From IMG/VR virus record IMGVR_UViG_2802429217_000003: a stretch of DNA of 42,375 nucleotides. One strand, written 5' to 3'. This DNA comes from a virus (lineage: Duplodnaviria; Heunggongvirae; Uroviricota; Caudoviricetes). Below are positions 6,001 through 9,000 of this stretch, piece after piece (positions within the stretch are counted from its first letter, which is position 1; each line of letters opens with the position of its first letter). A program made the position numbers.

Positions 6001-9000
6001 GTGGTATTTTAATACTTTTGCTTTCTTGAATTTCTTTATTGCAAAGGTGGTAAGCACATTTGATTTTCTTAGCCATCACCATGATTCCGCTTTTACAGGT
6101 AAACCATCACGACCGAGGAAGACTTTAATCATGCAGTCAGAAATGCATGTTTTTGTAGTCAGGCTACGAATATAAAGTTTTCGCTTTTTAATATTGTTTG
6201 CCGAGGCGATATATGTCCGACCTTCATGAAGAACATAATCGCCAGGGGTTACACACTGACGTGGTATTTCATCAGTTCCGAAGTGATGTGCAATCATAAT
6301 CATCTCCATTTTTTCAAATGAACTTTGTTGATGCGGTGCCTGGTGCCTCCAGGTGATGTTAACCAGTTAACAATTAACACCGGATACAAATACCCCCCCA
6401 AACTAATATAGAGTTTTTTAACTGTTCCGCGTGCGCTTAGCCGCATTCACCGCATCACAAAATTCACTTTAAAAAGGGCGGACATCAGTCGAACTTCAAG
6501 AAAAAACCGATGCCGCCAAAGACTACACACAGCAATGTCGTTATTCACAACCGGAGGCGCACTCCCACCATTTATATTTAACAGACAAGACCGACTCTTT
6601 ATGGATACCGGAAATGCGCCTTCGTGTTGTGCCCGGTTTTATTTCACCACCTCCGGGCTTCGGTGGTCTCGGCTATACCCCTACAGCGAGAGCTTGTGTT
6701 AACATTTCAATACCCTTACAGTCGAGAGTTATTGAAATGTTGGATGTATTTACTCCATTGTTGAAACTTTTTGCTAACGAGCCACTCGAAAGACTTATGT
6801 ACACGATTATCATTTTTGGCCTCACTCTCTGGCTGATACCGAAAGAGTTTGCTGTCGTATTTAATGCTTATACTGAAATACCCTGGCTCTTTCAGATTAT
6901 AGGTTTTGCCTTTTCTTTCGTGGTTGCCATTTCCTTCTCAAGATTGCGAGCACATATTCAAAAACATTATTCATTGCTACCAGAGCAACGAGTATTGCTT
7001 CGTTTATCTGAGAAAGAAATCGCTGTATTTAAAGATTTCCTTAAAACAGGAAATCTTATTATCACTTCTCCTTGCCGTAACCCGGTTATGAAAAAATTAG
7101 AACGGAAGGGCATCATTCAACATCAGAGTGATGGCGCAAACTGTTCTTATTATCTCGTCACCGAAAAATACTCCCACTTTATGAAGTTATTCTGGAACAG
7201 TAGGAGCAGACGTTTTAATCGTTAGCTTACTGTGTACTTCTCCAACCAGCGACGCGCGCCAACTTCGGTTTTAAACGTTTTGCTTTTGGTATACGTCATG
7301 GCGGTGAACGTTCCATCCTGGTTGGGGAACACGCCACACACCAGGGATTCGTTGTTGCTAAGATCGATAGTATCCATGTTGACCTCATTTTCCCTTAACG
7401 CTGGGGGAATTGGCTTCATAGTTGCTCCGTATCGTGGAGCCTACGACCTGCTTTTAACCACATCAGGTGAGGTGATATCCTTACAAATGGTAATTTGCTG
7501 TAAGGATATTAATTATGGATATTAAATTTCGCTGTCCTCATTGCCGATCTCGCTACATTGAGATCGATGAGCACTCTGGCTCTGACAATGATCGTTTTAT
7601 CTGCGGTGATTGTTTTGCGGAAATCAAAGATTCTGATTTCAGTGAACACTTTAATAAAACAATCAATAAAATCATCCGGACAGTTAAAAACCGCAGGAAC
7701 AAGTAGTTTGTATAACTTCTCAATCTGATGTCTCAGGGGGCTGGTATCTATTTTTAACACCAGTCCCTGCTTTTCATCTGCGATCATCTTCGTATCCCCT
7801 TAACGCCGGGTGGCGGAACTGTTTGCTGAGAACACCGTGCGGTGTTTTGGTGTGGTTAATTTAGAATAACCTAACAAGACAGGCAAGCACTTTTTGTTAG
7901 ATCAACCTAACAAAAAGTGTGTTGGGATATAACAGACTGAAAAGAAAGCTATTTTATAGATTTGTTTTTACGAGCTTTGAGCATTTCTTCGAAAAGTCTA
8001 TTGAAATTCTCAACTCTAGCGCGCATTTCAGACAGCAATGCTTCCTGCTCGGAGGATGGTAGAGCATCGAATAATTCAATCAATTCTTTGTGGCTGGGAG
8101 TTAGCTCGTTTTCCACATGAAGCTCTTGTGCTGGCAATGGTGTTTTGTCTTCGTCACCAAACATTAGCCACGTAGGTGAGCACTTCAGAGCATCCGCTAA
8201 AGCAAACAGTCGCTTCCCTACAGGTTGGGTTTCATCTCTTTCCCATTGAGAAATGGTGACGTGAGCAACCCCAGCGAGACGTGCGACTTCTCGTTGTGTC
8301 AGGCGTAATTCTTTTCGTCTTGCCAGAGCTCGCTGGCCTAGTGTTTTTGTATCCATAGTTAGGTAATTCTAATTTTTCTTGACTTAGGTATCCCGCGCAC
8401 ATTAGTGTTAGGAATATCTAACAAAGGGGGCTTTGATGTTTAAAGTTGATGCAATTATTTTTTTTGGTAGCAAGACAAAGCTTGCCAGTGCCGCAGGAGT
8501 AAGGCTGGCAAGTATTGCTGCATGGGGGGAGCTGGTCCCAGAAGGTCGCGCGATGCGTCTGCAAGAGGCATCTGGCGGAGAGCTTCAGTACGATCCCAAG
8601 GTTTATGACGAATATCGTAAGGCAAAGCGGGCGGGTAAGGGTATTCATGAAAATCAGGCATGAGCACATTGAATCAGTGTTGTTAGCTCTGGCTGCCGAA
8701 AAAGGTCAGGCGTGGGTTGCCAACGCAATTACTGAAGAATATTTGCGCCAGGGGGAGAGTGAATTAGCCTTGGCGCCAGGCAAGGACTGGAACAATCAGC
8801 AAAACATCTATCACCGCTGGTTAAAAGGTGAAACAAAGGCGCAAAGGGAAAAAATCCAGAAGCTGATTCCTGCAATCCTGGCAATTCTTCCGCGCGAACT
8901 GCGACACCGCCTCAGCGTTTTTGACACCCTGGAACGTCGCGCATTACTGGCGGCTCAGGAAGCGCTGAATACGGCAATTGATGCGCATGATGATGCAGTT

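Follow-up and report, generated by a model that had tools for sequence, protein, structure and literature searches.

The closest described counterpart of the locus analyzed here is the DicA/DicC immunity region of the Qin (Kim) prophage of Escherichia coli K-12. In that prophage, DicA-dependent repression acts in vivo through the operator Oc, TTGTTAGTCATAACTAACAA (Yun et al. 2012, PMC3441716), and a single A-to-C change in Oc (CTAACAA to CTCACAA) abolishes this repression in vivo (PMC3441716). At Oc, DicA acts as a repressor of dicC and an activator of dicA, and the -10 element of the mapped dicC promoter overlaps the operator (PMC3441716). The operators in the dicA-dicC and dicA-dicBp intergenic regions have been described as analogues of lambda PR and PL, and Rem as an antirepressor that relieves DicA repression and derepresses dicBp in K-12 (Ragunathan and Vanderpool 2023, PMC10448788). 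A DicC chromatin immunoprecipitation sequencing (ChIP-seq) preprint on K-12 inferred sites on either side of dicA and a palindromic motif, TT(A/C/T)G...C(G/A/T)AA (PMC11430063). The dicA transcript is among the leaderless E. coli mRNAs (Romero et al. 2014, PMC4681348), and the main text of Lally 2025 does not mention DicA. Can a switch of the same kind be recognized in a phage sequence? Here, we describe palindromes that flank a DicA-type repressor gene in IMG/VR virus record IMGVR_UViG_2802429217_000003, a Caudoviricetes stretch of 42,375 nucleotides (nt) that we call the window. We conclude, with a probability of about 0.85, that this region is the DicA/DicC (P22-like) immunity switch of a Rac-like lambdoid E. 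coli prophage that converts its host to production of LT-II (type II heat-labile enterotoxin), and that the palindromes are repressor operators.

Palindromes with a shared half-site flank a DicA-type repressor gene

The argument turns on two divergent genes and four sites, as follows.

7949-8356, minus strand: repressor gene, 135 amino acids (aa), DicA subfamily, with a P22 C2-like N-terminal helix-turn-helix (HTH).
8436-8663, plus strand: Cro-like gene, 75 aa, DicC subfamily, divergent from the repressor gene.
7894-7913, unstranded: distal left predicted operator, 8 bp upstream of the putative leftward -35 element, at a position conserved in relatives.
7859-7876, unstranded: proximal left predicted operator, over the spacer and -10 element of the putative leftward promoter; it aligns with K-12 ATGTTAGTCATGGCTAATCT at dicBp.
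8405-8424, unstranded: Oc-like predicted operator, over the -10/+1 of the cro-like promoter by homology and 50 nt from the repressor ATG.
8357-8374, unstranded: Oa-like site, abutting the repressor ATG and overlapping a -10-like TAGAAT (8371 to 8366, minus strand).

Direct reading of positions 7300 to 9000 bore out both palindromes of the original prediction, an earlier reading of this sequence. An exact TGTTAG-N6-CTAACA lies at 7895-7912, with a 20-bp form at 7894-7913 that reads TTGTTAG-ATCAAC-CTAACAA, and a second exact copy lies at 8406-8423 (TGTTAG-GAATAT-CTAACA; 20-bp form gTGTTAG...CTAACAA at 8405-8424). The complementary arms of the left palindrome run to 13 bp (7888-7900 and 7907-7919). 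The distance between these two strong sites is 511 bp, as in K-12. The extra half-site that had been reported at 7871 is present (CTAACAA, 7871-7877) and can be described more fully as the right half of a degenerate full operator at 7859-7876, ATTTAG-AATAAC-CTAACA, with two mismatches. The site at 8357-8374, AGTTAG-GTAATT-CTAATT, has 3/12 mismatches to the palindrome. Measured from center to center, adjacent sites are 36 bp apart in the left pair and 49 bp apart in the right pair.

Could such palindromes have arisen by chance in A/T-rich intergenic DNA, with no regulatory role? The bare heptamer TTGTTAG would allow it, since the window shows no enrichment of this sequence (8 copies versus 5.8 expected). 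The complete palindrome does not: two exact 12/12 TGTTAG-N6-CTAACA sites were observed versus 0.0035 expected from base composition, and in first-order Markov simulations (n = 1,000) 998 sequences contained no exact site, 2 contained one, and 0 contained two. The core TTAG-N6-CTAA occurs 5 times in the 42 kb versus 0.92 expected, with four of the five copies within 7861-8421, in both intergenic regions flanking the repressor gene. The half-site is also identical to that of the mutationally defined K-12 Oc, and the positions of the sites are conserved across genera, with variable spacers (described below). Chance is therefore effectively refuted, and we give it a negligible probability. The fifth core, at 17773 inside an 898-aa open reading frame (ORF), and a 2-mismatch site at 12892 were themselves taken as chance occurrences.

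The two proteins belong to the families expected of such a switch in K-12. The repressor matches the NCBIfam model NF007257 ("transcriptional repressor DicA") with 220 bits (cutoff, 101), is 57% identical to K-12 DicA over 132 aa, and over residues 1 to 72 matches the P22 C2 structures 1ADR, 2R1J, and 3JXB (E = 1e-18 to 2e-17). Its Pfam matches are to the N-terminal Cro/C1 HTH only, and Pfam and NCBIfam profile searches revealed no Peptidase_S24 domain in the 135-aa protein. An identical protein is labeled dicA in GenBank MN652886 ("Escherichia phage Rac," host E. coli 442/2), a record that also labels dicC and rem. The Cro-like protein matches NCBIfam NF007282 with 154 bits (cutoff, 130) and Pfam P22_Cro, and it is 75% identical to K-12 DicC. 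The two genes are separated by 79 bp.

The K-12 Qin prophage has the same four-site layout as the window. Its Oc lies 51 nt before the dicA ATG, and its Oa counterpart, ATTTAG-CATTAG-CTAACT, abuts that ATG. Past the dicA stop codon, at 36 and 71 nt, are ATGTTAG-CTATAG-CATACAA and, beyond TTGACC, ATGTTAG-TCATGG-CTAATCT, which contains TAATCT. The K-12 counterpart of the distal left site, ATGTTAGCTATAGCATACAA, is an imperfect palindrome.

Operator half-sites are conserved in relatives and differ between repressor clades

For the survey, we scanned genome contigs and viral contigs once each and obtained 90 usable DicA-family loci. The viral-contig scan covered the 80 closest relatives only (93 to 100% identity), the diversity coming mainly from the genome contigs, and Campylobacter matches, in which only residues 82 to 115 aligned, were left out. 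The same four-site layout was found in ∼85 of the 90 loci, and in Escherichia, Citrobacter, and Buttiauxella-type loci the sites lie at constant distances in all. Absence of the motif from homologous immunity regions had been named as grounds for rejecting the operator assignment; our data revealed the motif at the same positions. The spacing of the left pair is 35 to 36 bp in all relatives, and the distal left site lies 37 to 46 nt past the repressor stop codon, with an invariant half-site and a variable spacer (14 distinct spacers). Across the 90 loci, drawn from Escherichia, Citrobacter, Buttiauxella, and viral contigs, column variation was 0.3 to 0.8% in the half-sites, 21 to 28% in the 6-bp spacers, and ∼15% in the flanks, figures that were anchored by a relaxed motif match and are thus biased toward conservation of the half-sites. 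A position-based listing without the motif anchor gave the same picture of conservation.

A sister clade with repressors of 65 to 69% identity (Enterobacter, Pantoea, Erwinia, and the PPompW element of an Stx2a phage record) carries different operators: the Oc position has CCTTAG-N6-CTAAGG, and the left half of each of the two leftward sites is CTTAGG. The repressors of this clade share the recognition helix HVTISQWE and have SQAALGK in helix 2, as in P22 C2, versus TQRE or TQRS in helix 2 of the TGTTAG-class repressors. Operator half-site and helix 2 thus differ together, which indicates that the operator tracks the repressor clade. The survey can be regarded as a natural experiment on DicA-family specificity, in which TGTTAG and CCTTAG operators track changes in helix 2.

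This tracking also bears on whether host factors (YjdC/DicD or H-NS/Cnu), and not the phage repressor, might be the main proteins bound at these sites. YjdC does occupy the K-12 dic locus in ChIP-quantitative PCR (PMC9283627), and CnuK9E together with H-NS antagonizes DicA at Oc (PMC3441716). Repression through K-12 Oc, however, required dicA (PMC3441716), and binding by host factors would not explain an operator sequence that follows the repressor clade across genera. We consider a primary role of host factors highly improbable.

Some loci departed from the common pattern. In L011 (E. coli ECMA0423) and L012 (Shigella flexneri), the DicA-like gene is apparently degraded, and neither locus has an intact ORF with SQWER. 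L012 retains both leftward sites in intact form, and its Oc-like site has lost one base. Cronobacter phage phiES15 (L107), whose DicA-like repressor is 52% identical, has the pentamers in the opposite arrangement, CTAAC-N4-GTTAG, with ACTAAC-TTTT-GTTAGT near the leftward promoter (640-680) and AGTAAC-TTTG-GTTAG near the cro side (1145-1165). This arrangement suggests that the binding geometry differs or that the true operator is another sequence.

The right operator region: an Oc equivalent and a probable promoter/Cro site

The 8405-8424 palindrome lies over one further predicted element.

8379-8408, plus strand: putative rightward dicCp/PR-like promoter, with -35 TTGACT (8379-8384), an 18-nt spacer, and -10 TAGTGT (8403-8408).

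The -35 hexamer TTGACT is kept in all relatives, and TAGTGT, the best candidate for the -10 hexamer, overlaps the 8405-8424 site. From these sequence relations, we predict with high confidence that 8405-8424 is the equivalent of Oc, a repressor operator over the cro-like promoter. By analogy with K-12, it may also be the activating site for the repressor promoter.

The original prediction had counted 8357-8374 as a related operator-like site. The sequence is present, but we probably have to read it differently, as the core promoter of a leaderless repressor mRNA combined with a site for Cro (DicC) and autoregulation. Several observations favor this alternative, in which 8357-8374, and to a degree also 7859-7876, would not be a repressor operator but a core promoter of a leaderless mRNA, a preferred DicC site, or both. 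Its three mismatches place it at chance level, and with 3-mismatch matches in the window at their expected number (16 versus 15.7) it is not significant by itself; its support as a site comes from a conserved position in relatives and not from statistics. It abuts the repressor ATG, has no Shine-Dalgarno sequence, and contains TAGAAT 9 nt before that ATG. In K-12, where the dicA mRNA is leaderless (PMC4681348), Oa is not bound by DicA in vivo (PMC3441716). The block abutting the repressor ATG (ATTAGAATTACCTAA) is constant across both operator classes, so that CCTTAG-class loci retain it alongside different repressor operators, and the DicC proteins of the two classes are 84% identical; the motif obtained from DicC ChIP corresponds to the common TTAG...CTAA core (PMC11430063). 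The lack of DicA binding at K-12 Oa and the constancy of the block across specificity classes are what make the core promoter/Cro site the more probable identity. On the other side, 8357-8374 keeps the TTAG-N6-CTAA geometry, and weak or cooperative binding of the repressor, with autorepression as at lambda OR3, is possible. On balance we lean toward the promoter/DicC assignment, which refines the operator explanation for one of the four sites without replacing it.

The left operator region: a putative dicBp-like promoter and a conserved leader

The two left sites are arranged around the following elements.

7858-7886, minus strand: putative leftward dicBp/PL-like promoter, with -35 TTGCCT (7886 to 7881), a 17-nt spacer, and -10 TAAATT (7863 to 7858).
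7788-7851, minus strand: conserved leader of the leftward transcript, ACACCGCACGGTGTTCTCAGCAAACAGTTCCGC.ACCC.GGCGTTAAGGGGA.

The promoter region aligns base for base with K-12 TTGACC-N17-TAATCT. The distal left site is predicted to be strong and the proximal left site weaker.

The long arms of the distal site raise another possibility, namely, that the 13-bp-arm palindrome at 7888-7919 acts as RNA, either terminating the repressor transcript or stabilizing its 3' end as a hairpin. The palindrome is located 30 nt beyond the stop codon of the repressor gene, a perfect 13-bp stem forms when the minus-strand RNA is folded, and a minimum free energy of -22.9 kcal/mol (z = -2.96) was calculated for the 111-nt region. 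The stem, however, is A/U-rich and is not followed by a U-tract on either strand, a T-run precedes it, and a terminator scan gave no match at this position. Its K-12 counterpart is imperfect as a palindrome, its half-site is found at three more places, among them the divergent promoter region, and the half-site changes together with the repressor clade in the sister clade. We rejected the hairpin/terminator on the grounds of the missing U-tract, the imperfect K-12 counterpart, and the recurrence of the half-site in promoter DNA, and we regard an RNA role as very unlikely. The distal site is better read as a DNA operator.

The distal site is also flanked by a conserved T5...A5 extension, TTTTTGTTAG-N6-CTAACAAAAA (7888-7893 and 7914-7919), which is found at the same positions in relatives and is lacking at the Oc-like site. 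Since its A-tract falls at ∼-41 to -45 of the putative leftward promoter, it could double as an UP-like element.

Near-identical copies of the leftward leader are found in K-12 Qin, E. albertii, and E. ruysiae, and recognizable ones occur in Citrobacter, Buttiauxella, and Pantoea. The leader could mark a module junction or act as a regulatory RNA. In locus L001 it occupies coordinates 2940-3008, and a prophage whose repressor is unrelated carries the 3' part of the leader ahead of ydfA (L110, 3765-3808).

An insert of ∼370 bp (7420-7790) follows the leader and precedes the DUF1391 gene of the leftward operon; it is bounded by a duplicated junction (GCGTTAAGGGGA/GCGTTAAGGGAA) and was found in only 29 of 5,426 complete E. 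coli genomes. It holds a RefSeq 92-aa minus-strand ORF without a family (7509-7787) and an overlapping plus-strand 63-aa CxxC...CxxC ORF (7515-7706; NCBIfam ECs_2282_CxxC, 31 bits, below the cutoff of 37), with a stem-loop and a T-run after the stop codon of the latter.

Proposed switch and route of induction

How might these sites work together? In the switch that we propose, repressor dimers would bind the 18- to 20-bp palindrome TGTTAG-N6-CTAACA. Repressor at 8405-8424 would cover the rightward -10/+1 and turn off the dicC homologue, the ydaT-like gene, and the replication genes, and by analogy with K-12 DicA it would stimulate its own weak, probably leaderless promoter. Repressor at 7894-7913 and 7859-7876 would shut the leftward promoter and with it ydaF, kilR, recET, ralR, xis, and int. 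The Cro-like protein would recognize the TTAG-N6-CTAA core, including that of 8357-8374, and since the latter overlaps the repressor promoter, this protein could switch repressor synthesis off, as lambda Cro does at OR3.

Induction would be expected to proceed through an antirepressor of the Rem type rather than through RecA-mediated cleavage. A candidate is encoded in the window.

18905-19162, plus strand: Rem homologue (tblastn, 59% identity to K-12 Rem, E = 8e-28), probably, by analogy, the antirepressor of the DicA-type repressor.

The Ala-Gly cleavage site is missing in DicA (PMC10448788), and a search of the whole window, including the region upstream of the Rem homologue, found no LexA box (CTGT-N8-ACAG). 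Taken together, the lack of an S24 domain, the Rem homologue, and the lack of a LexA box make antirepression the likely route. We infer both this route and which protein occupies which site in this phage.

Several points weigh against the conclusion that the palindromes form the operators of a DicA/DicC switch. The DicA that has been tested is the K-12 protein, which is only 57% identical to the repressor of the window. In K-12, only Oc was bound, and the other sequence-predicted sites, Om and Oa, showed no DicA binding (PMC3441716); DicA binding at the dicBp sites has been described as predicted (PMC10448788). A promoter/terminator scan reported neither of the two putative promoters, each of which matches the consensus at only 8/12 positions, so that the assignment of exact hexamers on both sides is putative and rests on the alignment to K-12. 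The match of 8357-8374 at chance level and the motif anchor of the variability figures count here as well, and the operator model does not account for the T5/A5 extension of the distal left site. The identity of the half-site with Oc, the excess of exact palindromes, and their conserved positions nevertheless lead us to favor repressor operators.

Flanking operons, toxin genes, and possible cross-immunity

The immunity region opens into two operons, whose first genes beyond the switch are as follows.

8647-9069, plus strand: YdaT-family gene, at the cII position of the rightward operon, with replication genes after it.
7222-7377, minus strand: ydaF/ydfA-like DUF1391 gene, the first gene in the leftward operon that is widely conserved.

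The YdaT-type gene has been read as a cII analogue (Jobling 2018, PMC5917428). After the DUF1391 gene, the leftward operon continues with kilR, recE, recT, ralR, xis, and int, and it adjoins ttcA in near-identical genomes. Neither dicB (tblastn) nor DicF (Rfam and blastn) was found in the window. A Rac-like leftward operon without dicB/dicF indicates that the DicA/DicC immunity module is a mosaic partner here. The genes dicF and dicB define the Qin dicBF operon and not the immunity module itself.

The window carries LT-IIA and LT-IIB genes at 23908-25042 (plus strand) after the lysis cassette (LT-IIA, Pfam Enterotoxin_a, 383 bits; LT-IIB, PF06453) and a gene for a pertussis-toxin-S1-like ADP-ribosyltransferase at 21049-21774 (plus strand), just past the Q antiterminator gene (DUF1133, 20118-20660). 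These toxin genes identify the window as an LT-II converting Rac-like phage. Their position downstream of the Q antiterminator and lysis genes makes their expression probably dependent on derepression at the operators, as in Stx phages. The sites thus mark the lysogeny switch of a prophage that converts for LT-II and a pertussis-like toxin. Mechanistically, they add nothing to the established DicA/DicC and P22/lambda models and are an ordinary regulatory feature.

Do the LT-II phage and the Qin-type cryptic prophages form one immunity group? Retention of the exact K-12 Qin half-site despite 57% protein identity makes this possible. We put it forward tentatively, as a doubtful proposal, together with the suggestion that repressor oligomers bridge the two strong sites and loop out the repressor gene. 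If true, a resident Qin DicA could repress an incoming or resident LT-II phage and phage-linked toxin expression, and in the other direction dicBF could be silenced in trans by the repressor of the LT-II phage. The single near-identical host genome that we examined, strain 357900, has a Qin-site prophage with a LexA-family repressor and unrelated operators and no co-resident DicA, which indicates that co-residence is not general. In this full-size Qin-site prophage (L110, 2780-3815), unrelated palindromes such as AAAACTAAATAGATTTAGTTTT precede ydfA, ydfB, and dicB. It illustrates a reciprocal mosaic of the window, with exchange of modules at the conserved leader junction.

Other features of the window lie outside the immunity region. 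The nin-region segment 11856-18316 differs from the closest complete genome. It holds the 898-aa ORF (15307-18003), which has Mrr_cat nuclease and nSTAND1 NTPase domains and no PADLOC match and is possibly a defense gene; a broken IS30-like transposase (HTH_38, 14575-15081; rve, 13952-14548; both on the minus strand); and a 534-aa ORF without a Pfam family. An Rfam scan of the whole window found only the RalA antitoxin small RNA (1552-1730, plus strand), opposite ralR, and the sok antisense RNA of a hok/sok module (18334-18509, plus strand), just upstream of the Rem homologue; it found no RNA family at the palindromes.

Comparison with known systems

Compared with lambda CI/Cro, the window has the same general plan: two operator clusters with one half-site flank the repressor gene, the repressor and cro promoters are divergent, the repressor mRNA is leaderless (in the K-12 homologue), and the operator closest to the repressor gene is the predicted target of a Cro-type protein. 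Beyond the HTH fold, however, the protein family and the operator sequence are unrelated to those of lambda; the sites are 18 to 20 bp with a 6-bp spacer versus 17 bp, tripartite adjacent operators are lacking, and induction is predicted to be by antirepressor. The lambda-like bipartite immunity region proposed in the original prediction therefore stands as to the half-site shared across the repressor gene, with the DicA/DicC proteins, the Oc match, and the conservation in its favor, but its repressor is DicA/P22-C2-like and not lambda-CI-like. Likewise, the proposed OL/OR-like arrangement holds in that sites lie on both sides of the repressor gene, with two recognizable sites per side and not three.

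The resemblance to P22 immC lies in the C2-homologous N-terminal HTH (E = 1e-18) and the P22_Cro-type Cro-like protein. P22 operators are approximately ATTTAAG-N4-CTTAAAT, and the 18-bp geometry with a TTA...TAA core is common to both systems. Unlike P22, the window has a repressor without a C-terminal S24/LexA-type domain, so that no RecA-dependent self-cleavage is expected; the half-site is TGTTAG rather than TTTAAG, and two recognizable sites per side replace three. The sites of the window are 35 to 36 and 49 bp apart, whereas those of P22 and lambda abut. The Gifsy-type GfoR/GfhR systems of Salmonella offer a parallel: their repressor is short and non-cleavable, and a small antirepressor inactivates it (PMC10448788). 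They differ in that the window has no LexA box.

The K-12 Qin prophage is the nearest match, although not in every respect. The window is an apparently complete Rac-site (ttcA) prophage with LT-II and a pertussis-like toxin, its leftward operon is Rac-like (kilR, recET, ralR) with dicB/DicF not found, and no Om-like element was recognized in it. Its distal left site is a perfect palindrome, and a ∼370-bp insert separates the leader from the DUF1391 gene. The two systems nonetheless share a 135-aa repressor that lacks a cleavage domain, a DicC protein of 75 to 76 aa, and the divergent arrangement of their genes. They have in common TTGTTAG/CTAACAA half-sites with a 6-bp spacer, an Oc-like site ∼50 nt from the ATG, an Oa-like site at the ATG, and a left pair 35 to 36 bp apart around the leftward promoter, followed by a near-identical leader and a downstream DUF1391 gene, and both encode a Rem homologue.

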